Assembly: GCA_046581755.1 (NCBI GenBank)
Contig: JAYGFR010000149.1
Location: 1-14,638, forward strand
DNA: 14,638 nt
Origin: Nitrospinota bacterium
GTDB taxonomy: Bacteria > UBA8248
Direction of reading: 5' to 3'
In this document: positions 1 through 12,760 of the stretch, piece after piece
Layout: the number at the start of each line of letters is the position of its first letter
Numbering within the stretch: position 1 is the first letter of the stretch
Translations under genes and position numbers: made by a program
The notes under the pieces: generated by a model
Told to the model about the DNA's origin: nothing
Database searches by the model: none
Seen by the model: only the letters and a program-made list of their open reading frames with translations

Positions 1-77
1 TCTGGTGGCCCAAAATAAGATGGAAATTGGGGACGTGTTGTGGCTAGAATGCTGCGAAAATACAAAATCGGGGGAAA

Positions 78-440
78 TTAGGCCGCTTTTAGAGGTTGCC
101 TTCTTTTTAAATGAAGAAGGAGCGTCATCGTGTGGTCCACCACAGAGTCCGAGATCGGCATCGCAAACGTTGCGACGGGGATTCCGCGCGAGGCCGCCTC
201 TTCGGGTTTCAGGCGCTCGAAAAAATAACCGCCCGCCTGGATGAGTTTGAGCCCTCCCGCATGGGGGTAAAATTCGGGACCCAGGTCGTCGTTTTCGCAG
301 ATAAAAAACGCCGCCTCCTCGAGGGCTTTGAGCCGTTTTCTCTCGTCGGGCTCCACGATGAGGTCGATTCGGTCCCCGTCCAGGGCGGCATCGATTCTTT
401 TCGTAATTTTCGGCCGGCAGCGGCCTACTTCGCAGGGCTC
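78..440 (-). pseudogene. Truncated D-isomer-specific 2-hydroxyacid dehydrogenase (N-terminal substrate-binding part only)
   Basis: The open frame 440->78 contains LKLIQAGGYFFERLKPEEAASRGIPVATFAMPISDSVVDHTMTLLLHLKRR. This matches the family segment LK.I....G.D..D...A..RGI.V.N......SVAEH...L.L...RR. It stops (TAA at 80-78) where the NAD-binding domain should begin, and there is no good start codon or RBS upstream of the homologous part. Confidence 0.6.
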
Positions 441-588
441 TCAGGCAGGGAAGTATCCGGGTCACAACACGGATTTTGGTTATGGGAAATCCCTCTTGAA
501 ACGGCCCGCTGGGCGGGGCCCGTTTGAAATAATCCACGGCTCCAGAATTTCAAACCTGAATCCTCCGGGCGCTTTTAGGGGCGCCGGG

Positions 589-597
589 TGGTATAAT
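589..597 (+). promoter_or_regulatory. Extended -10 sigma70 promoter (TGgTATAAT) for the redoxin-DinB operon
   Basis: Exact TGnTATAAT at 589-597 in GC-rich DNA, 75 nt upstream of ATG 672. No clear -35 element. Confidence 0.6.
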
Positions 598-671
598 TAC
601 TAAATGCCGAACCCCACAAATTGGAAAACCGGGGAAAGTGTTTCTCCCCGTCCATCTCGGAGGCGATTCTC

Positions 672-1439
672 ATGGAACCGGTAAAAGTCTACACGAGACA
701 CGGCTGATTCTCTTGCGCCAGAACGAGAGAGTTTCTCTCGGACAAGGGCGTCACTGTCATCGACCGCGACGTGGAAAACGACGAGGAGGCAGCCCGGGAG
801 CTCGCCAATATGGGCCTCAAGATTCTGCCAGTCTCGGTGCGGGGGGACCGCCAGGTCATCGGTTTCAATGCCAAGGAGCTGATCGAGACCTTCGGCTTGG
901 ATAAAGGGGGCGACGAGCTTCCCGAGCCCGGGTGGATGCTCGAAAAGTACCGGTTCGTATTCGAGGCGACAAAGCGCGCCGTCCGGCAGATTCCACCGGA
1001 CAAGCTCACCTGGGAGACTCCCAAGCGGAAGCGCGACCTGCGCATGCTCACCTGGCACATTTTCGAGCGGGTGCGGATTTGCCTCCAATCGCTGGAGGTG
1101 GGCGAGTATACGCGGGCGGCGGTGACGAACTACCGGAAGGACATGGACTACGAAGCTGCCGGCCTCCATACGCCCGAGGACATTTGCACGTACGGCGGCG
1201 GGGTGGAGGAGGAGCTCGAACCCTATCTGATTGGCGATAAGACGGACCTTCTCGAGAGGACGGTGCCTACCTACGCAGGGGATAAGACGCTTCACCAGCT
1301 TCTCGAACTAGCGCTTGCCCACGCCTATCAGCACCTTCGCCAGACCTATGAGTATCTCAAAATGCTGGATATCGAGCCGGACCGTCCTCTTTCCGCGGGC
1401 GATTACGAGGGGATACCGGTGACGAAAGACCTTTTCTAG
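672..1439 (+). CDS. Probable selenoprotein: glutaredoxin/NrdH-redoxin domain (U-F-S-C) fused to a DinB-like four-helix domain, 255 aa
   Basis: RBS GGAGG 659-663 and ATG 672, in frame with the 771..1439 ORF. Translation MEPVKVYTRHG-TGA(705-707)-FSC-ARTREFLSDKGV..DRDVEND..A.REL..MG..ILPV...RQVIGFN is a complete Grx/NrdH fold with TGA at the first Cys of CxxC. The C-terminal part has DinB-type His motifs (TWH129, H217AYQH221). Confidence 0.85.
715..751 (+). promoter_or_regulatory. Putative bacterial SECIS element
   Basis: Upper stem CGAGAG(724-729)/CTCTCG(735-740) with loop AGTTT. Lower stem GCGCC(715-719)/GGCGT(747-751). The loop begins 22 nt after the UGA and has G followed by U in its first positions. 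Confidence 0.7.
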
Positions 1440-1470: not shown

Positions 1471-2148
1471 ATGACGAAAGAGGAAAGGCGGGAGCTTCAG
1501 GCGTCTCTCTCCGCGTTCCCCGGAGGGCTCCGGGAGGAAACCGAGGGCCTTTCCTTCGAGCAAATGACGTTCGCCGCCCTGGAACCGGGTTGGGCGCGTT
1601 GGTCCATCGATAACCACCTTCGCCACGTGGCCCAGATTCCCGCCAACTGGCTCTATGTGCGGACCCAGGAGGCGATATCCGCCGCAGGATATTTCTTTCC
1701 GCCCACCGCCGAGGCCATCGCGCAAGTCCGCCGCTCAGGTCCCCGGCTGGTTCCGCCCCATGTCGCTCCCGACCGGAAGGCGCTCCTCGATATTCTGACG
1801 ACCTGGATGATCTTTTGCTGCTGGATTCTCGACCGGGAGGAAGATGAGGGGTTGCGGAAAATTCAGGTCCAGCTATGGGTGGATCCGGATGAAAAAAGGC
1901 CGGACGATCCCCGGAAGACGGTTGAATACACCAGGGACGCGGCGGCGCTCCATCCCTCCGGTTACATCGAAGATCCCCAAAAACCGGGGCATTTCACCGT
2001 CGAGCTCGGCACGGCTCTTTGCCATATCCACTGGAATATGCTGGCCCACCACAGGAATATTCAGCGAATCAAGACCCTGTTGGGGCTGCCCGAGGCGATA
2101 GACCTTCCCCGGGTGGGCTACCTCTCACTCCCGAAGTATTACGACTGA
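1471..2148 (+). CDS. DinB-family protein (DinB_2-like), 225 aa
   Basis: RBS AGGAGG 1458-1463. Motifs EGLS.EQM.F.....WARWSIDNHLRHVA and ALCHIHWNMLAHHRNIQRIK..LGL are typical of DinB helices 2 and 4. Starts 31 nt after the previous stop. Confidence 0.75.
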   Translation: MTKEERRELQASLSAFPGGLREETEGLSFEQMTFAALEPGWARWSIDNHLRHVAQIPANWLYVRTQEAISAAGYFFPPTAEAIAQVRRSGPRLVPPHVAPDRKALLDILTTWMIFCCWILDREEDEGLRKIQVQLWVDPDEKRPDDPRKTVEYTRDAAALHPSGYIEDPQKPGHFTVELGTALCHIHWNMLAHHRNIQRIKTLLGLPEAIDLPRVGYLSLPKYYD

Positions 2149-2735: not shown

Positions 2736-2834
2736 ACGGAGGGCGGGGCCGCTTCCGGCCGCCCCCAATCGAACACGGGAGCGGGTTTTGGAATGGACCT
2801 TTCAAACGAAGGGAAACGTGAGAAGGAATGGGAT

Positions 2835-3289
2835 ATGAAAATTCACCGGGTTTGGCTCCCGTCGATTTTTCCGCCGCCAGCCGGGATGAATTGGGCTATG
2901 CGATCGAGCTTGCCGGGGAGTGCGGCGCGGAGTTGATCGCGCTCCATGTGATCCCCCCTTACGTCGCGGAGATGTATGCCCAAAAAGGCACCGACTGGGG
3001 CGCTTTCCGGGCGGAGATCGAAAAGAAACTTCATGCCCTCGTCGGGAAAGAGGCGGCGAAAAACTAGGCCGCCGGGATTCATCACAGGTGGTGCGTCGTT
3101 TCCGGAAATCCCGCCAATGAGATTTTGCGCGTGGCGAAGCGGGAAAAAGCCGATCTCGTGATCATGTCCACGCATGGGCGCTCCGGAATTCCGCGCGCCG
3201 TCATGGGCAGCGTTGCCGAAAAAGTGATCCGCCAATCGACGGTGCCGGTCCTGACCTTGAGTCAGGCCGGAATGTCCAAGGCGGCATGA
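2835..3289 (+). pseudogene. Universal stress protein (Usp), disrupted
   Basis: LAPVDFS...LIALHV in the first half. The same frame continues past TAG 3065-3067 into GNPANEILRVAKREKADLVIMSTHGRSGIPRAVMGSVAEKVIRQSTVPVLTL. The likely start ATG 2835 (MKIHRV, RBS AAGGA 2823-2827) needs 1 extra nt at ~2851 to join LAPVDFS. Confidence 0.8.
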
Positions 3290-3359
3290 TCGAAGCGGCG
3301 GTTTTTGGGGGCGCGTGGTTCAGGATTCGGGAGGCCAACCATTGAGAAAGGATAGGAGA

Positions 3360-3830
3360 ATGTACAAGAACATTATGGTCCCTCTGGACGGATCGAAGCT
3401 GGCCGAAGTGTGCGATTTCGCCCGCCAACAAGGGGCGAAACTGAATATTTTGAGAGTGACCTACGCCAAGGTATTTCCGGGCGCGGACCCGGCCGATTCT
3501 CAACTGAAAGTCGTCGGAGAGGCGGAGGACTATACTCAAATGGTTCAGCGCCGCCTGGAGGAGGAAGGATTTACCGTCGAAAGCCATGTCCGCTATGGAT
3601 TTCCCGTGGAGGAAATTTTAGACCATGCCAAACGGGGAGGCGTTGACCTGATCGCCATGGCGACCCATGGGCGTTCGGGGCCCGCCCGCTGGATGCTGGG
3701 CAGCGTTGCCGAGGAGGTTCTTCGCCACGCGCTCGTCCCTGTATTGCTCTTCCGGGTCCGCGGGGCGCAGGAGGCGGGGATGGACCCGCCTTCGGCCGCC
3801 GAGGTGGACGAAAGGAGAAAAGTGTCATGA
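3360..3830 (+). CDS. Universal stress protein (Usp)
   Basis: MYKNIMVPLDGSKLAE...G.PVEEILDHA....VDLIAMATHGRSGPARWMLGSVAEEVLRHA.VPVLL, a Usp with the G-2x-G-9x-GS ATP-binding-type motif. Helix 1 looks shortened by about 5-6 residues. Confidence 0.88.
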   Translation: MYKNIMVPLDGSKLAEVCDFARQQGAKLNILRVTYAKVFPGADPADSQLKVVGEAEDYTQMVQRRLEEEGFTVESHVRYGFPVEEILDHAKRGGVDLIAMATHGRSGPARWMLGSVAEEVLRHALVPVLLFRVRGAQEAGMDPPSAAEVDERRKVS

Positions 3831-4286
3831 CAAAATTCAGGGCGAAAAAAATCCTTGTGCCGGTGGATTTCTCGGCGTTCAGCGAAGGGGCTCTCGAGAC
3901 CGCCGCCGATCTGGCCCAGACCCAGGATGGAGAGCTCACCTTGCTCCACGTCATGATGGAGCCGCGCGCTTCGGTCCCTTATGAGGTCTACATCGACTGG
4001 CAAAAGGTGAAAGACGAAATTTGGCGGGACGTCGAGAAAAGCCTCGAAACCATGAAAGAAAAAAAACGGTTTCGCGGGCAAGGCCCAGCACGCGCTCTTT
4101 TGGGGAGACCCGCCCGGGGCGATTGTGAAGTATGCGAATGAGAACGGATTCGACCTGATCGTGATGGCGACCCACGGGCGGACGGGCGTGGGCCGGCTGT
4201 TCATGGGCAGCGTGGCCGAGAACGTCATTTGCCACTCACCGTGCCCGGTTGTGGTGCTCCGGAGCTCGGAGCTCGTTGCCGCCTAG
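3827..4286 (+). pseudogene. Universal stress protein (Usp), frameshifted in an A8 run
   Basis: KKILVPVDFS...LTLLHV in the first frame. Removing one A from the run at 4059-4066 restores NGFAGKAQHALFWGDPPGAIVKYANENGFDLIVMATHGRTGVGRLFMGSVAENVICHSPCPVVVLR to TAG 4284-4286 (152 aa). ATGA overlap with the previous gene. Confidence 0.85.
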
Positions 4287-5331: not shown

Positions 5332-6141
5332 ATGATGCTCGAGGGAAAGAAGATCATCGTCACCGGGGGCGGGAGCGGAATCGGCCGGGCCACCTGCGTC
5401 CTCGCCGCCCGCGAGGGCGCCGGCGTGGCCGTCGCCGATATCAACCCCGAGACCGGGGCCGAAACCGTGGAGATGGTCAAGGCCGAGAGGCGGGAGGCGA
5501 TTCTCATCGAGATGGACACCTCGAAAAAGGCCGACGCCCTGCGCATGGCGGAGGAGACCCTGGCCGCCTTCGGGACCATCGACGGCATCGTCTGCTGTGC
5601 CATCAAGCTCGTTCCCGGGCGGCTCGAGGATCTTCCCGAGGAGGACTGGGACATGGTGATGGACATCGGGCTCAAAGGCTATTTTCTCTGCGCCCAGGCC
5701 GCCGGGCGGACCATGATCAAGAACAAGAGCGGGGCCATCGTGTTCGTCTCCTCGGTCGGGGGGATGCAGACCTACCCGCTGGCGGGGGCTTATTCGGTCT
5801 GCAAGGCGGGGGCGATCATGCTCAGCAAGCTCTTCGGGGTGGAGTGGGCCGCCCACGGCATCCGGGCGAACACGGTATCGCCCGGCCAGGTGCGGACCCC
5901 GATGACCGAGGCGATGTTCCAAGACCCCGTGATCGCCAAGGGGCGTGCCGCGGTCGTGCCGATGGGCCGGGTGGGGGCGCCCGAGGAGATCGCTGAGGGG
6001 TGCGTTTTTCTCCTCTCCGAGCGGGCGCGCTACATCACGGCGGCCAACCTGCCCATCGACGGCGGGCAGGGGGAGAGCAAGATGATTCACACGCCGGGGC
6101 GAAACTGGGGGGGCAAGAAAATCGACTACGATGCGAGATAA
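5332..6141 (+). CDS. Short-chain dehydrogenase/reductase (probably NAD-dependent)
   Basis: TGGGSGIG glycine motif, Asp at the end of beta2 (VADIN), catalytic Ser region (VSS) and YSVCK, then IRANTVSPG and GRVG.PEEIA. Confidence 0.93.
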   Translation: MMLEGKKIIVTGGGSGIGRATCVLAAREGAGVAVADINPETGAETVEMVKAERREAILIEMDTSKKADALRMAEETLAAFGTIDGIVCCAIKLVPGRLEDLPEEDWDMVMDIGLKGYFLCAQAAGRTMIKNKSGAIVFVSSVGGMQTYPLAGAYSVCKAGAIMLSKLFGVEWAAHGIRANTVSPGQVRTPMTEAMFQDPVIAKGRAAVVPMGRVGAPEEIAEGCVFLLSERARYITAANLPIDGGQGESKMIHTPGRNWGGKKIDYDAR

Positions 6142-6156
6142 AGGAGGATGAAAGTC

Positions 6157-6933
6157 ATGGGACGTCTCGAGGGGAAGACTTGCATCGTCGCGGGTGGCGC
6201 TCGCGGCATCGGCGCGAAGACCTGCGAATTTTATGCGGCGGAGGGCGGCCGGGTCGTGATCGGGGACGTGCGGGAGGAACTCGGCGCGGAGCTCGCCGCC
6301 AAGATCGGCAAGCGGGCGGTTTTCCAGCCGCTCGACGTGACCGACCCGGAATCGTGCCGGGCGGCGGTCGAGCGGGCGGCGGGTGAATTCGGATCCGCCG
6401 ATCATCTGGTCAACTGCGCGATCAAGATGGACCCGGCCCCGCTGATCGACCTCAAGCTCGAAAGCTGGAAGCTGGTCGTCGATATCGGCCTGACGGGGAT
6501 GTTCCTCATGTGCCAGGCGTTCGGGAGGTGGGCGATCGAAAACGGCCGGGCCGCCTCGATCGTGAATCTCTCCTCGAACGCCGGCGTCCAGCCCTACGGA
6601 ATGTCGGGGGCCTACAGCACCGTCAAGGCGGGTATCATCATGCTGACCCAGCATTTCGCCATCGAATGGGCGCGAAATAAAATCCGGGCGAACACCATCT
6701 GCCCGGGGCACACCGAGACGCCGCTGACGGCCTACCTGCAGGACCCGGAAATCAAAAAGGGAAGGAGCGAGGTCACCCCCTTGGGCCGGGTGGGCCAGCC
6801 CGAGGACATCGCCCACGGAATTCTCTTTCTTCTATCGGACGAGGCGGACTACATCACCGCCGCCCGGCTGGATATCGACGGGGGCCTCACCAGCAGCATC
6901 TTCAACCACATGCCGGGAAGAAAATGGGATTGA
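6157..6933 (+). CDS. Short-chain dehydrogenase/reductase, paralogue of the upstream SDR
   Basis: AGGARGIG, IGDVR, NLSS, YSTVK, IRANTICPG and GRVGQPEDIA. Start 6157 is preferred over 6148 because of its spacing from AGGAGG 6142-6147. Confidence 0.92.
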   Translation: MGRLEGKTCIVAGGARGIGAKTCEFYAAEGGRVVIGDVREELGAELAAKIGKRAVFQPLDVTDPESCRAAVERAAGEFGSADHLVNCAIKMDPAPLIDLKLESWKLVVDIGLTGMFLMCQAFGRWAIENGRAASIVNLSSNAGVQPYGMSGAYSTVKAGIIMLTQHFAIEWARNKIRANTICPGHTETPLTAYLQDPEIKKGRSEVTPLGRVGQPEDIAHGILFLLSDEADYITAARLDIDGGLTSSIFNHMPGRKWD

Positions 6934-6954: not shown

Positions 6955-8331
6955 CTATCTCTCGCGGCAGGCCGCGGTCACCTCGGCCGCCCCGCCCCGG
7001 CTGTCCAGATTCATCACGGCATCGATAACGCCCTGAATCCTTCCGGGGGGCAGCCCCCGTCCGGCGTTGCCCCGGAATTTTTCCTCGACATCGGCTCGGT
7101 TCATGGGGTTTTCCGGGTTGCCCCAGTTGACGGGCTCCTCGCGCTCCAGTGTGCGCCCGTCCGCGAGCTTCATCCGGACGCCGCCGTGCAGGTACTTGGG
7201 AAACCGGTCCGAGTCCACGGTGATGTAGCTGAATTTTCCGGCCAGGGCGAGGATCTCCGGATCGCCCAGATTCTCCTCGTCGAAATCGGCGAGCTCCGCG
7301 CGCCCCTTAACCGCGCTCAGCGCCATGCAGTAGGGCAGGCTGAACAGGGCGGCGTAGGAGGATTCCGGTTTTTTCTTCTGCTCAACCGGCTCGCAAACGA
7401 GGTGCGCGATGGGCTCGGGGATCACGGCTTCAAAGGCCTCGATCTCCTCCGGGCGGATGCCGGCCTCGCGGACCAGGTATTTTGCCGCGTCCATGGCGGC
7501 GTGGTTAAAGTGGCAGCAGGGATAGGGCTTGAAGGAGATGTTCAGCGTCTCCCAGCGCTCCCCGAAGCCGCCCGCCAGCGCCTCGGGGTCGTATTCGCGG
7601 TCCTGGACATGGGTGGCGTAGAGCCCGAAGCGGCCCTCGAAGACCTTGCGCGGGCCCAGATACCCGTGGCCCGCGAGCTGGGCGGCGGTGATGCCGGCGT
7701 GGCAGGCCCATCCGGGGTGAAAGCGCTTCGCCCAGGAGCCGTCGTCCAGGAACTCCTGGATTCCCGAGGCCTGGCTGCCGGCCGTCCCCATCGCGTTGGC
7801 GATGACCTCAGGGGCGTGGCCCCAGAGACTCCCCGCGATGGCCACGGCGCCGAACGTGCCGCAGATGGGGGTGGCGTGGTAGCCCTTGGCGTGAAAGCCG
7901 CCCTTCATGGCCCCGCCCACCCGGGCGATGATCTCGTATCCCGCCACCATGGCAGCGAGAATTTCTTTGCCCCCCGCGCCGGCCGCCTCACCCACGGCCA
8001 GGGCGGTGGGCACCACGCAGGCGCTGACGTGGGTGATGGATTCGGTGTGCGTGTCGTCGAAGTCGATCCCGTGGATCAGGCTCCCGTTCACCATGGCGGC
8101 GTGCGCGGCGGGGAGCTTGTCGCCGTAGCGGAGGAGGGTGGCCTGGGGCGCGCCGCCCCATTCGCGCGCCACCGCGACGATCCCCTTAGCGTAGTTCTCC
8201 TCGGTGGAGGCGAGGCCGATGCCCAGGGCGTCGAGGATGTGGAGCTTGACCTTCTCGATGACCTGGGAGGGGATGTCCTCATAGCGCAGGGCGGCGGCGA
8301 AGGCGGAAAGTTTGTCGCTCATCGTTTCCAT
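6955..8331 (-). CDS. MmgE/PrpD family protein (third in operon)
   Basis: NGSLIHGIDFDDTH....TH, GYHATPICGTFGA, KRFHPGW, FKPYPCCHFNH and GNPENPM....VEEKF motifs. Confidence 0.92.
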   Translation of the reverse strand: METMSDKLSAFAAALRYEDIPSQVIEKVKLHILDALGIGLASTEENYAKGIVAVAREWGGAPQATLLRYGDKLPAAHAAMVNGSLIHGIDFDDTHTESITHVSACVVPTALAVGEAAGAGGKEILAAMVAGYEIIARVGGAMKGGFHAKGYHATPICGTFGAVAIAGSLWGHAPEVIANAMGTAGSQASGIQEFLDDGSWAKRFHPGWACHAGITAAQLAGHGYLGPRKVFEGRFGLYATHVQDREYDPEALAGGFGERWETLNISFKPYPCCHFNHAAMDAAKYLVREAGIRPEEIEAFEAVIPEPIAHLVCEPVEQKKKPESSYAALFSLPYCMALSAVKGRAELADFDEENLGDPEILALAGKFSYITVDSDRFPKYLHGGVRMKLADGRTLEREEPVNWGNPENPMNRADVEEKFRGNAGRGLPPGRIQGVIDAVMNLDSRGGAAEVTAACRER

Positions 8332-8371
8332 GGGCTGTCTCCGTTCAAAGGGTGGCGCCGATCCGCGAGGT

Positions 8372-9760
8372 TCAGGCTCCGGCCGCCGGAAGCGAGGCCG
8401 CGAGGCGGCTCACCACGGGCGCCAGGGAGTCCAGTTCGCCGATCCTCTGGGATATTTCGATGAGATAGGCCTGAAGCTCATCATCGATGATGGATTCGGT
8501 CACCCACCGGAATTTTTCGGCGACCTCGCCAAAGGCCATCGGGTTTTGCGGAGATCCCCTCGGGCCTTCCCGGGAGCTGGTGTAGGTCCCCCCGCTTTTG
8601 GTTCGAACCGTGACTTTTCCGGGAAATGTTTGGGGATATTTTTTCTCGATCTCGGGGTCCACCGTGAAACGCGCCCGCTGGGCCAGGGCGACGATGGCCG
8701 AATCCGAAAACCGCTCTTCCGAGAACTGGGCCGGTCCGGCCGCGCCGTCGGCCAGAGCGACGGCGGCGCAGTATTCGATGTTCATCTGGGCGTTCAACGC
8801 GGTGAGGGGCTCGTATTTCCAGCTGCACTGCCTCTCGACCACGCTGTGGTTGAAGATTTCGATCTCCTCGATATCCTCCGGCTTGAGGGCGTTCTTTTCG
8901 CGAAGGTCCAGGATGGCGTCGATGGTGGAGTGGACGCTTCCGCAGCAGCAATAGGGCTTGATCGAGGTGTCGATCGCCTCCCAGCGTGTGCCCAGGCCCT
9001 CGGTGAGCAGGGCGGGATCGCCCTCGCCGCTGAAGGCCGAAAGAAATCCCCCGTCGCCGAACTCGAATATCTGCGTCGGGCCGGTGTAGCCCCTCCGGGC
9101 GAGGTCGGCCGCGAGCAGGCCGGCCTGGGCCGCGCGGCCGCCGTGAAAACGCTTGGTCTCGGAGCCGTCACAGTTAAACGCCCAGAGGCCGGCGGATTGG
9201 GTCCCCGCCAGGCCCAGCGCGTTGGCCGTGGTCTCCGGGCCGAGCCCGAGGAGGCGGCTGGCCACCGCCGCCGCGCCGAAGGTGCCGCAGATGCCGGTGA
9301 GGTGAAAGCCGCGCTTTCGGACGGCTATCGAGCCCGCCGCCAGGCTGGTGCGGATCATCGTCTCGTATCCGGCCGCGGCCGCCGCCAGGAAGGTTTTTCC
9401 GTCCGACCCCAAAAATTCGGCCAGCGGAATGGCGGCGGCGAAGACGGGTCCGCCCGGATGCAGCTTGGCGCCGCCGTGGTAGTCGTCGAGCTCGTAGGCG
9501 TGCATCCAGGTGCCCAGGCAGAGGCCGACGCTCTCGAGGGGGCCGCGCCAGCCGTGTCTCCAGAGGGAGGCTTCCTCTTTTCCGCCTTTTTCCAGCGCCT
9601 GCGCGGCGAGAATCCGCCCCGATCGGGTGATGATTCCGTACAGGCCGCAGCCCACGGTGTCGAGAAATAATTTGCTCATCGAGGAGCGCAACTCGCCGGG
9701 CAAATCGCCGTATTCGATTTGGCTGATGAAACGGGAAAGATCGCGTGTGGGTGAGGTCAT
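8372..9760 (-). CDS. MmgE/PrpD family protein (second in operon)
   Basis: HAYELDDYH....LHPG, GFHLTGICGTFGAA, TKRFHGG, IKPYCCCGSVH and GSPQNPM...EVAEKF. 4-bp overlap with the upstream gene. Confidence 0.92.
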   Translation of the reverse strand: MTSPTRDLSRFISQIEYGDLPGELRSSMSKLFLDTVGCGLYGIITRSGRILAAQALEKGGKEEASLWRHGWRGPLESVGLCLGTWMHAYELDDYHGGAKLHPGGPVFAAAIPLAEFLGSDGKTFLAAAAAGYETMIRTSLAAGSIAVRKRGFHLTGICGTFGAAAVASRLLGLGPETTANALGLAGTQSAGLWAFNCDGSETKRFHGGRAAQAGLLAADLARRGYTGPTQIFEFGDGGFLSAFSGEGDPALLTEGLGTRWEAIDTSIKPYCCCGSVHSTIDAILDLREKNALKPEDIEEIEIFNHSVVERQCSWKYEPLTALNAQMNIEYCAAVALADGAAGPAQFSEERFSDSAIVALAQRARFTVDPEIEKKYPQTFPGKVTVRTKSGGTYTSSREGPRGSPQNPMAFGEVAEKFRWVTESIIDDELQAYLIEISQRIGELDSLAPVVSRLAASLPAAGA

Positions 9761-11181
9761 GAAGGCAGCTCCCGTCCGGTTACCCGGTTCTCGAAACAGC
9801 CCGCGATATCGGTCATCTCCTCCACCCCGGCCGGGGAGAGTTTTTCCAGCGAGGCGCAGAGTTCGATCAACCGCTCGGCGGCGGATTCATCCAGGCGCAG
9901 CCGCAGGCAGTCCCGGATTTTCTTCATGTGCTCGTCCCGGGAGACCTTGGGCGCTCCCCAGAAATCCTTCGGGCCATCGCACCGGGCCGCGGTGCTATCG
10001 CCGTTTTTGAGTGTGACCGAGATTTCCACGTACATTTTGTCCATGTCTTTGGGAATGTCTTCCGATTGGACGAAGGTGGTTTTTCCGAGGAGTTCCTGGA
10101 CATCGCTCTTTTGCACGCGGCTGTCCTTGAAGGTGCCGATCCCGACTTCTCCGTCCAGGAGCGCGGCGGTGGCGGCGTACTGGAAACTGAACTTTCCCTC
10201 GAGGCCCGTTTGGGGCGCGGGCCGGTTCACATAGTTCATGACGGGGCCCGTGATTTTCACCGAGGCGATTTCAGAGGGATTGGAAACCCGCGAATGGAGT
10301 TCCAGGGCGGCGGTGATGACGAAGTGGGAGGGGTATTGGGAGGGAAACTGCTTGATGGCGAAGCCGGGGTCCACCATGCGGTAGGGCTGCCCGAACGCGA
10401 GGAGCGCGGTGTAGTCGAATTCCTCCAGAAAAAAAGCGTCCCGGTACCCGTTTTCCGCCTCGATCACGGATGGATTCCCGGTAAAGCCCCGCGCCGCAAG
10501 CATGGCGGCCTCCAGGCCCAGCGAGGCGGAGTAGCCGCAATGGGTGGCCTTGGTCATGGTGCCGATGTTGCCGATAAGGCTTCCCGCGCGGGAGGCCGCA
10601 ATGCCCAGGGCGTTCGAAAGCTGCCCGGCATTCAGCCCGAGGAGATGGCCCGCGCCCACGGCGGCTCCCATCACGCCGAGATATCCCGGCGGATGGTGAA
10701 CGAGAAGGGCCGGGGCGTAGAGCTTGCCCGCGAGATTGAGGCGCCCTTGAATCTCGCAGGCCTTGATGAAAGCGGCGAGGGTCTCGCGCCCATCCGCCTT
10801 TTTTATTCCCGCGGCCGCCAGCACCGAGGGCAGGGAGGGCGAGACCGCGTGGGTGGGCGGCATCCACATGGGCTCGAAATCCAGGACGTGAATCGAAATG
10901 CCGTTCACGAGGGCCGCCGCGACCGGATTGGCCCGAATGCCCATGCCCAGAACGGCGGAATCGCCCCCTCCGCCGAGGCTTTGGATATGGGCCGCCGCGA
11001 TGCGGGGGCCTTCCTCGTCCGCGCCCGCGATGCCCACGGCAATGCCGTCGAGCATCACGCGCTTGGCCACCTCGACCGCCTCCGGTGGAAGGGAGCCGAA
11101 GCCGATTTCCGTAATCGTTTGGCAGAGGCGCTCGGTGATGCCGGACGGCCGCGCCTGATCCCCCTTTTTGCCTTGCATCAT
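9757..11181 (-). CDS. MmgE/PrpD family protein, cis-aconitate decarboxylase (ACOD1/IRG1)-like subgroup
   Basis: MmgE/PrpD architecture with AALVNGISIHVLDFEPMWMPPTH, EIQGRL, HHPP, TMTKATH, AIKQFP, YVNRP.P, SFQY, LLDG and YVEISVTLKNG. Starts immediately after the tcuA-like stop. Confidence 0.88.
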   Translation of the reverse strand: MMQGKKGDQARPSGITERLCQTITEIGFGSLPPEAVEVAKRVMLDGIAVGIAGADEEGPRIAAAHIQSLGGGGDSAVLGMGIRANPVAAALVNGISIHVLDFEPMWMPPTHAVSPSLPSVLAAAGIKKADGRETLAAFIKACEIQGRLNLAGKLYAPALLVHHPPGYLGVMGAAVGAGHLLGLNAGQLSNALGIAASRAGSLIGNIGTMTKATHCGYSASLGLEAAMLAARGFTGNPSVIEAENGYRDAFFLEEFDYTALLAFGQPYRMVDPGFAIKQFPSQYPSHFVITAALELHSRVSNPSEIASVKITGPVMNYVNRPAPQTGLEGKFSFQYAATAALLDGEVGIGTFKDSRVQKSDVQELLGKTTFVQSEDIPKDMDKMYVEISVTLKNGDSTAARCDGPKDFWGAPKVSRDEHMKKIRDCLRLRLDESAAERLIELCASLEKLSPAGVEEMTDIAGCFENRVTGRELPS

Positions 11182-12693
11182 TCAGGCCCCGTTCGCCATG
11201 GCCCCGGCGTTCGTTCCCGCGATTTTTCCGAAAACGGCGCCCCGGACGAGCCCCGCGCCTCCCGGATAGTTCTGGTAGAAAAACCCGCCCGCGATTTCGC
11301 CCGTGGCGAAGAGGCCGGGGATGGGCCGCTCCAGGTGATCGGTGACGGCGGCGTCGGTATTGATTCGAATTCCGCCGAAGGTGAACGTGATCCCCACCGT
11401 GACCCCGTACACCCGGTAGGGAGGCGAATCGATGGGCACGGCCCAGTTGGTCTTTTCGGGGTCGAGCCCCCGAGTGGCCTTTCCGTCCTTGATGGTCGGG
11501 TCGAAGCGCCCCTCCCCGCAGGCCGCGTTGAAGCTGTGGATCGATTCGATGAAGGCATCCTTGTCGAATCCCATGTGGCCGTATTTTCGATCGACCGCCC
11601 CGACCAGCTCCTCGACGGTATCCGCTTCGAGCGGAACGCCCGTGCTATAGCGCGGCTCGAGGTAGGGGACAGTCTTTTGGTCGAATACCTGGAAGGTGAT
11701 CGCGTTGCGCTGTTTGAGAATCTCCTTGCCCATCTTGGCGTAGGTGTAGAGCACCGTGTCCTCGCCCTCGTCCGCGAAGCGCTTGCCCTCCAGGTTGAGC
11801 ATGACCCCGTAGAGATAGGAAAGGCGGTTGGTCTTGTCGGTGAGCTTCAGATCGCCGTATACCGGCGCGTCCGAGTCGATGGGCGTGGCGTGGCAGCCCG
11901 ACCACTCGCCGTAGCTCTGGGCGCCGATGTCGAGCGCAGCCCGGGTCAGGTCGCCCGTATTGAAGCGCGTTCCCCGGACCTTGACCAGGCTCCAGTCCGG
12001 GCCCAGGTAGGAGGTCCGCATGTTGGGGCTGGACTGAAACCCGCCGCTACCCAGCACCACCGCCCGGCACCGGATCGTCCGGCCGCCCTCGGGCCCGCGG
12101 ACCTCGACCCCCGCCGCCTCGCCGGCCGGGCCCGTCACGATGCGGTGGGCCTGGGTCTCGTAGAGGACGGGAATATCCGCCTCGTCCAGGAGCCGGAACA
12201 GATTCGCCGAAAGGCCCACCCCTTCGTGCAGGCTGCGGATGGCGCTCCCCGGGGCGAGCTTGATCTTCTCCTGATCGCCGGTGCTGACCCCGCCCACCAC
12301 CCGGCTGAACTCGAAGGGCACGCCCAGGTCGGCCATCCAGCAGACAGTCTCGTAGGATCGCTCGACCATTACCCTGGTCAGCTCCGGATCGGAGCGCCCG
12401 CCCGTCACCCGCGCCATGTCGGCGTAGTAATCATCCGCCGTGTAGGGGTCCGCGATGATGTCGCGGGGGGCGTCGTTGTCCTTGACGATGGGCAGGAGGT
12501 CTTCGACGCTGTTATAGGTGTGCCGGAAAATTCCTCCGGTGAACCGCGTGTTGCCGCCCCGGAGGTCCTTGCTGGCCTTCTCCAGAACGGCCACGCGGGC
12601 GCCTTCGGCATGGGCCGCGAGGGCCGCCGTGATCGCCGCGTTTCCTGCTCCCACCACCACGACATCGAATAAATCCTGGTTGGAATCGCTCAA
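11182..12693 (-). CDS. tcuA: FAD-dependent tricarballylate dehydrogenase TcuA/CobZ-like flavoprotein
   Basis: DVVVVGAGNAA..AALAA...GA.V.VLEKA....RGGNTRFT, GGF, VRG...NTGD, GITFTFGG and NYPGG.GL..G.VFG. TTG start at 12693 is inferred from GGAGGAG just upstream. Family is clear; substrate is not proven. Confidence 0.8.
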   Translation of the reverse strand: MSDSNQDLFDVVVVGAGNAAITAALAAHAEGARVAVLEKASKDLRGGNTRFTGGIFRHTYNSVEDLLPIVKDNDAPRDIIADPYTADDYYADMARVTGGRSDPELTRVMVERSYETVCWMADLGVPFEFSRVVGGVSTGDQEKIKLAPGSAIRSLHEGVGLSANLFRLLDEADIPVLYETQAHRIVTGPAGEAAGVEVRGPEGGRTIRCRAVVLGSGGFQSSPNMRTSYLGPDWSLVKVRGTRFNTGDLTRAALDIGAQSYGEWSGCHATPIDSDAPVYGDLKLTDKTNRLSYLYGVMLNLEGKRFADEGEDTVLYTYAKMGKEILKQRNAITFQVFDQKTVPYLEPRYSTGVPLEADTVEELVGAVDRKYGHMGFDKDAFIESIHSFNAACGEGRFDPTIKDGKATRGLDPEKTNWAVPIDSPPYRVYGVTVGITFTFGGIRINTDAAVTDHLERPIPGLFATGEIAGGFFYQNYPGGAGLVRGAVFGKIAGTNAGAMANGA

Positions 12694-12721
12694 GGTTCTC
12701 TCTCCTCCCAGCGCGGGATTC

Positions 12722-12760
12722 CCGCACATCCGCGGGCGGGGATGTCCCGCGGATGTGCGG
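12722..12760. repeat. Perfect 15-bp inverted repeat (hairpin) in the leader of the tcuA-like operon
   Basis: CCGCACATCCGCGGG (12722-12736), 9-nt loop, CCCGCGGATGTGCGG (12746-12760). Confidence 0.8.

Follow-up and report, generated by a model that had tools for sequence, protein, structure and literature searches.

In the window, as we call the whole stretch of 14,638 nucleotides of marine bacterial DNA that was analysed, the in-frame UGA codon at 705-707 almost certainly encodes selenocysteine. Judged from the sequence, the gene around it almost certainly specifies a 255-aa selenoprotein that joins a UxxC redoxin to a DinB domain with three histidines. The two parts are known, stand-alone UxxC glutaredoxins among them, and their combination is a real, uncatalogued selenoprotein architecture. 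Features of the gene are collected in Table 1. Its N-terminal readthrough is VKVYTRHG-TGA-FSC, whereas the mechanical ORF list begins the gene at GTG 771, 33 codons late. The skipped codons, the ribosome-binding site with its ATG at 659-674, and the cis-Pro of ILPV (Pro53) followed by a GF motif (IGF) had all been recognised in the first-pass annotation and were recovered here. Purine-rich stretches of the GGAG/GAGA type also precede the ATG in the relatives that were read. A consensus scan of the upstream region holding the candidate promoter element returned no -35/-10 pair. At the other end of the protein, the tail covaries with the last DinB helix (Y219-Y245, Q220-I248, and A216-P249).

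Table 1. Features of the redoxin-DinB gene (positions of the window)
Feature	Position	Strand	Basis
Extended -10-like element TG-n-TATAAT, candidate promoter	589..597	+	spotted by eye
Shine-Dalgarno GGAGG, 8 nt before the ATG	659..663	+	read from the sequence
Full coding sequence, 255 aa, predicted Sec at residue 12 (start ATG 672-674, stop TAG 1437-1439)	672..1439	+	readthrough, comparison
Grx/NrdH/YruB-type redoxin, aa 1-75 (U12-F-S-C15, Pro53 at the cis-Pro position, GF motif)	672..896	+	Pfam and model
In-frame TGA, read as U12	705..707	+	30/30 copies; Cys in homologues
Cys15, predicted resolving cysteine	714..716	+	30/30 copies; 58/59 database rows
SECIS-like hairpin within the coding sequence	724..740	+	7 Watson-Crick pairs, 724-730 with 734-740
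DinB/YfiT four-helix bundle, aa 82-241 (codons of His129 at 1056, His217 at 1320, His221 at 1332)	915..1394	+	model, profiles
C-terminal tail (GIPV..LF; GLPxP..W in distant members) and stop codon	1395..1439	+	conserved

A search of 61 genomes gave full-length matches in 33 of them, and all 34 matches carried exactly one TGA. Thirty were read directly, namely the window copy, its paralogue, and copies from 28 other genomes. The TGA stood at codon 12 in all 30, the upstream codons were conserved too, Cys15, His129, His217, and His221 were kept throughout, and no stop separated the two domains in any copy, at 46-53% identity to the window protein among the extracted copies. Two metagenome relatives with 84-85% identity likewise carried TGA at codon 12. 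Among database proteins, 59 of 158 had a residue at this column, which was Cys in 55 (query counted), Trp in three, and Ser in one. The search for homologues with Cys or TGA at residue 12 that the first-pass annotation had proposed therefore returned both forms.

The TGA at 705-707 is no assembly error. An independent metagenome contig differed from window 1-1311 at seven positions, none of them at 705-707, and three RNA-library runs, each from a different study, have contigs in which the codon is unchanged (X15, 468-907, and X18, 641-832, with 0 differences each; X16, 615-1148, with one, at 830). Contigs of four RNA-library runs, picked with this stretch, overlap parts of 468-2220; they carry no strand or level and are thus not counted as proof of transcription.

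The SECIS-like hairpin went unmentioned in the first-pass annotation. Its GUU loop (731-733) lies 23 nt after the UGA, the folding energy of 718-747 is -9.9 kcal/mol, and the hairpin agrees with the bacterial SECIS model given in the legend of Fig. 2A of PMC13188914. Out of 5000 synonymous recodings, 8 gave the 7-pair stem and 126 folded as stably. Over 27 distinct rows of the host family, 94% of stem cells pair, which 0/500 shuffles matched and against which slid-register controls reached 34-73%. Two-sided changes were seen at 2/8 pairs and amount essentially to a single event within one genus. The G of the loop occupies the third position of a Glu codon, which is GAG in 30/30 copies, compared with 16 GAG and 14 GAA at Glu43. 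For the wider comparison, 113 of the 120 listed GTDB loci were kept and seven short or stand-alone ones dropped. All seven pairs occurred at the same register in 33/52 TGA forms but in 0/61 Cys forms, and GAG at the loop codon in 51/52 and 30/61, respectively; kin occur among these loci, so that neither this comparison nor that of selA counts independent cases. The remaining 19 TGA forms show 4-6 pairs at this register, several of them with a shifted hairpin. An Rfam search of the window gave no match.

Selenium machinery was present in the host genome, which is 96.5% complete. The genes selA and selB share one contig and score over the curated cut-offs, selD is over its cut-off and itself holds one TGA, and tRNA-SeC with anticodon tca completes the set of selA, selB, selC, and selD that had been suggested as a check. 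In the listed GTDB fusion loci, selA was detected in 32/35 TGA-form genomes versus 9/38 Cys-form genomes. The first-pass placement of selenocysteine at the nucleophile position of the redoxin therefore stands, with TGA in 30/30 copies, Cys in homologues, a hairpin conserved together with the TGA, the sel genes present, and neither TGC nor TGT at the codon. The host genome also holds a stand-alone 80-aa UxxC redoxin (contig C351, ~8043-8290, minus strand), which reads STT-U-TPC and has the same hairpin at the same spacing. The thioredoxin reductase gene trxB lies ~3 kb downstream of it, as do genes that presumably encode a zinc-ribbon protein, a CopZ-like protein, and MerR. Weak Grx-like matches with TGA stops occurred in most host-family genomes.

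The AlphaFold2 model of the 255-aa product has a mean pLDDT of 95.7 and a pTM of 0.90, the latter suggesting a fixed domain arrangement. PF00462 matches residues 4-48 with 35.2 bits (cut-off 22.9), and the model superimposes on the Sec-glutaredoxin cGrx1 (7c10; Z 13.2, rmsd 1.3 over 75 residues) and on NrdH (1h75; Z 12.2, rmsd 1.9 over 75 residues). The best NCBIfam matches of residues 4-70 were the NrdH, YruB, and Uxx-star models (TIGR02194, TIGR02196, and NF041212), all sub-threshold at E 1e-10 to 3e-9, with scores against cut-offs of 36.8/85.75, 41.6/88.55, and 37/66 bits, respectively. The C-terminal bundle resembles DR0053 most closely (6iz2; Z 15.4, rmsd 2.6 over 144 residues), followed by YfiT (1rxq; Z 13.3, rmsd 3.2 over 164 residues), the mycothiol S-transferase MST (8f5v; Z 11.8), BstA (5wk0; Z 11.7), and MDMPI (2nsg; Z 11.6, rmsd 3.4 over 164). 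A Z near 13 can be common among helical bundles; here the top five VIA matches, at Z 15.4-13.3, were all DinB/YfiT. The sequence-profile search returned 6iz2 (E 2.7e-7), 3gor, 1rxq, and 8fx9, Pfam DinB_2 matched residues 97-224 below its cut-off (19 bits against 24.8; E 0.002), and close relatives carry PF12867. The Grx/NrdH-type domain and the three-His DinB fold named in the first-pass annotation are hence confirmed by Pfam and profile scores and by the model matches.

Both predicted sites are conserved. The triad positions agree with the model helices, with one His on helix 2 and HxxxH on helix 4, and the complete triad is present in 112/127 near-full-length database proteins. The other 15 lack one or more of the triad His, with P0017 lacking both helix-4 His, and form a possible metal-free sub-branch. 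In homologue P0110, SxxS replaces CxxC while HxxxH is kept, possibly a redox-dead variant. Arg119, Arg121, Arg223, and Gln224 are conserved at 89-96% across the family. Weighted conservation was 0.99 and 0.99 at the redox positions and 0.96, 0.94, and 0.98 at the His triad, and this joint conservation points to selection on the two sites within a single chain. The DinB domain is predicted, with good confidence, to bind a metal. Weak covariation links the active-site side of the redoxin with the DinB lid and tail (E35-K120 at rank 26, L52-V250 at rank 89, and E35-P117 at rank 98), and some pairs between the domains that rank similarly connect other regions (E43-W88, G58-P108, and R32-T173); the underlying alignment is shallow, with an effective 201 sequences.

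The host genome contains a second copy of the fusion, with 51% identity to the window copy. A full-length copy was found in 32/36 other host-family genomes and a further one split over two contigs, while the window query found none in 3/36. The window copy is itself a divergent second copy, with a 4-residue insertion and Val34 as opposed to Cys34 in the other 29; Cys172 is invariant in the host lineage (30/30). Named database relatives are labelled Nitrospinota and Tectomicrobia. A HMMER scan recovered 628 cluster representatives with E-values of up to 0.001, and 161 of these remained at 1e-10. A GTDB motif scan permitting TGA, TGC, or TGT found at least 120 loci, with 58 TGA and 62 Cys among the matches listed; its motif excludes the window's own subfamily, so that these counts are not family-wide proportions. 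The whole fusion could be demonstrated in 35 TGA and 38 Cys loci, the other 47 being cut short or stand-alone redoxins. The 35 listed TGA-form fusions are labelled Pseudomonadota, Binatota, Myxococcota, Chloroflexota, and Eremiobacteraeota, with record labels of Beta-, Alpha-, and Gammaproteobacteria, Binatia, Deltaproteobacteria, Chloroflexi, and Eremiobacteraeota. A quick tree from which column 12 was left out requires five changes between Sec and Cys, at least two of them forced by well-supported branches; being unrooted, it does not make Sec the ancestral state. A back-translation scan with the deep alignment yielded no usable conserved stretch. Truncation by automated annotation, also foreseen in the first-pass annotation, is common, as 83/127 near-full-length public records begin at position 16 or later.

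Several known systems share one part of this architecture. Sec-glutaredoxins (PF00462; cGrx1, PDB 7c10/7c12) have the same fold, UxxC position, cis-Pro, and GF; they are single domains of ~80-120 aa described as GSH-dependent (Table 1, PMC13188914), whereas the window protein carries a fused 170-aa DinB domain and belongs to a lineage without gshB. The NrdH/YruB-type redoxins and Uxx-star proteins, the best profile matches of residues 4-70 at 37-42 bits against cut-offs of 66-89, are represented by stand-alone models, none of which spans the C-terminal 180 residues of the fusion. No fusion model occurred among the 20 NCBIfam families matched by any of 130 members. On the DinB side, known enzymes combine a His-bound metal with a small thiol (PMC10950700, PMC5815605), and in multi-domain DinB enzymes the second domain is thought to set the co-substrate (PMC5815605). 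The YfiT triad H67/H160/H164 (PMC5815605) is equivalent in spacing to H129/H217/H221. YfiT/BstA, mycothiol S-transferase, and DR0053 share the four-helix bundle and basic residues beside the site, but are single-domain proteins using BSH or MSH, unlike the fusion with its Sec redoxin in the same chain. EgtB, SenA, OvsA, LmbV, and MDMPI join DinB to a second domain that is no redoxin, whereas the redoxin of the fusion is N-terminal. A similar plan is also seen in Cys-type GSTs (omega, lambda, DHAR), with a thioredoxin-fold N-domain that bears the nucleophile on helix 1 and a helical C-domain. Their helical domain is unrelated (whole-chain Foldseek matches with TM 0.25-0.35, rmsd 11-16 A), the C-domain of the fusion fitting DinB far better, and GSTs have no His-triad metal site.

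The same architecture with PGC[ST]SC is found in Cys-form clusters called 'DinB superfamily/Glutaredoxin domain-containing protein', with a score of 0.98 to a Cys homologue for ESM Atlas clusters that have 53-115 members. Fusions of the CxxC type, which the first-pass annotation mentioned for other bacteria, thus do exist; their names are automatic, and neither a functional description nor any sign that the Sec form had been recognised was found for these clusters. A description of a selenocysteine redoxin-DinB fusion was likewise not found in the literature. In the accessible parts of the sources, the 2026 selenoprotein inventory PMC13188914 has UxxC Grx in its Table 1, no DinB fusion, and 'DinB' 0 times in its text, the GOS paper lists fusions but none with DinB, and 'DinB' occurs 0 times in the text and four supplements of deep-Sep and in the BSepDB paper text and partial supplement (excluding Table S2), where single members may sit under 'Grx'. 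The accessible part of PMC13188914 also bears on the first-pass claim that, among bacterial selenoproteins, those with a UxxC thioredoxin fold are the commonest: the thioredoxin fold indeed accounts for most characterised selenoprotein families, but the most widespread family is formate dehydrogenase.

For the function of the protein, the reading to which we give the highest weight, with a probability of roughly 0.45 for the mechanism as a whole, is a self-contained reductive enzyme whose own selenolate would replace the small thiol. SelB would bind the hairpin and insert Sec12, and His129, His217, and His221 would bind a divalent metal. Arg119, Arg121, and Arg223 may hold an anionic substrate at this metal, be it a disulfide, a thiol conjugate, or another electrophile. 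Sec12 would then attack the metal-bound substrate, and Cys15 would resolve the adduct, releasing the reduced product and leaving an Se-S bond that thioredoxin reductase would re-reduce. Direct attack by Sec12 and recycling by thioredoxin reductase are favoured because thiol markers are absent, trxB is present, and no DinB-domain Cys is conserved across the wider family (Cys172 occurs in 12/158 rows), which would leave the redoxin without an internal partner thiol to recycle. In the host lineage, Cys172 (30/30) and Cys34 (29/30) could mean a different local relay. The more specific picture, in which the selenocysteine redoxin is docked over the His-triad metal and performs selenol chemistry on a metal-bound substrate without GSH, bacillithiol, or mycothiol, is put forward only tentatively.

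The strongest competitor, though an unlikely one, is a reading of two linked but separate activities. Here the DinB domain would act as a metal-dependent small-thiol transferase and the Sec-redoxin would remove or recycle mixed disulfides, with GSH as the thiol in Proteobacteria and cysteine, CoA, ergothioneine, or selenoneine in the host. The fold matches to BstA (Z 11.7), MST (Z 11.8), and YfiT (Z 13.3) agree with it, as do the basic pocket residues, which in BstA bind the carboxylates of the thiol (PMC10950700). Among carriers outside the host family, taken from the listed loci, gshB was found in 65/73, so that most of them make glutathione and GSH could be the partner there. Against this reading, gshB, bshC, and mshC were each found in 0/42 host-family genomes, with positive controls where they were expected. 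All 42 are MAGs, and 25 of them are >=90% complete and <=5% contaminated. Neither gshA type was found in the host genome. A classical transferase role with glutathione, bacillithiol, or mycothiol is therefore improbable in the host family, although marker absence in MAGs is compatible with an unknown or imported thiol, with cysteine, or with CoA. The thiol transferase or isomerase function proposed in the first-pass annotation is not established; its models, the bacillithiol and mycothiol transferases and mycothiol-dependent maleylpyruvate isomerase, need thiols whose marker genes went undetected in these 42 genomes. An EgtB/SenA-like gene does occur in the host, but such genes were found in only 48/80 carriers and are missing from three single-contig host-family genomes that hold the fusion; ergothioneine or selenoneine as an obligatory partner was rejected on the 48/80 count. 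The host gene, in locus L157 (C118:3101-7363), scores 320 bits, below the EgtB cut-off. A glycosyltransferase-like and a methyltransferase-like gene follow it, which we take to be SenB-like and EgtD, respectively, and the cluster looks selenoneine-type.

Gene neighbourhoods revealed no conserved operon or pathway when 1938 ORFs at 83 loci were clustered, and the largest real neighbour cluster, a transporter receptor, was present at 13/83 loci. The main host-family orthologue is usually followed by one common gene (6/9 host-family loci), presumably peptidase-M20/amidohydrolase-like, which we read as synteny among kin. In the window, a 225-aa ORF (1471-2148, plus strand) 31 nt downstream encodes a distant DinB-like protein. 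It falls into an Atlas cluster in which 35% of members have DinB_2 (score 0.95), and its family shows weak DinB_2 in 4/11 members, eight matches in the host genome, and occurrence in 38/42 host-family genomes. Of two metagenome relatives, one has this ORF after the fusion, which shows that the two genes are not always paired. Comparing the profiles of the two families gave nothing meaningful (probability 25%). On the other side, a divergent 2-hydroxyacid-dehydrogenase-like gene (1-483, minus strand) has a frameshift near 409 and a stop at 78. As the frameshift is repeated in an independent contig and relative L172 has an intact 347-aa gene, this is a real remnant. Universal-stress-protein genes occupy 2828-4141 (plus strand), of which 3315-3830 passes PF00582 and the ORFs 2828-3067 and 3827-4141 resemble broken Usp genes; in one DNA contig a base is inserted after 2850 and another is missing at 4059. 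Further along, an FAD-binding flavoprotein gene is followed by three MmgE/PrpD-family genes in tandem (6955-12729, minus strand), which face two short-chain dehydrogenases (5332-6933, plus strand). Judged by its genes, the region appears to be a so far uncharacterised cluster for organic-acid catabolism.

An isomerase or lyase that needs no thiol and resembles maleylpyruvate isomerase, in which Sec would add transiently to a metal-bound C=C and depart without net reduction, or a DinB domain presenting a protein substrate to the disulfide reductase, is improbable. The MDMPI fold match (2nsg, Z 11.6) and the recurrence of CoA transferases, hydratases, and transporter receptors nearby, at low counts, fit the isomerase or lyase. 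Transient addition needs no resolving Cys, yet Cys15 is conserved in 58/59 rows, TIGR03083 matches only 2/130 members and weakly, and no conserved aromatic-ring pathway was found among the neighbours.

A role in selenium or metalloid handling has little likelihood. The His site would bind selenite, arsenate, a heavy-metal ion, or a thiol complex, which the UxxC would reduce, for instance as selenide supply to SelD. Its main argument is the proximity of selA, which lies within 4 kb in 9/35 TGA-form but 0/38 Cys-form loci among those listed; all nine are Betaproteobacteria-labelled and not independent. In these loci (L038, L042, L071, L080, L088, L089, L100, L105, and L113), the Sec-form gene is just upstream of selA, selB was seen in three, and mnmA is upstream in most. 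The host's stand-alone sister redoxin also lies among putative genes for a MerR regulator and metal-binding proteins. The proximity of selA may reflect clustering of selenium genes rather than function, 29/38 Cys-form genomes, in which no selA was found, retain the gene, and neither host fusion copy is on the selAB contig or the selD contig.

It is hardly credible that the UGA is a real stop, whether in a pseudogene or ahead of a protein starting at GTG 771, or that it is a sequencing error or is read as Trp in another genetic code. The late starts of 83/127 public records, Trp at column 12 in three, and the frameshifted remnant next door speak for these readings. On the other side, TGA persists in 30/30 copies at ~50% protein identity with conserved upstream codons, and the TGA state is accompanied by the hairpin and by selA. 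The gene also uses the standard code for Trp at other positions, and 2/30 orthologues end in TGA.

The finding adds a widespread architecture to the bacterial selenoproteome, with about half of the sampled members using TGA, and the 83/127 truncated records, which lack the redox motif, are named simply 'DinB family' or hypothetical proteins. The fused, near-invariant UxxC/CxxC points to redox chemistry in this branch of DinB proteins and provides a handle on a mostly uncharacterised superfamily. If the self-contained enzyme is the correct reading, the family would parallel Cys-type GSTs through independent evolution, with a metal-dependent enzyme that began as a selenoenzyme and spread over several phyla. 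A lineage without the three classical thiol markers keeps the gene almost universally, which makes the replacement of a small thiol directly testable.
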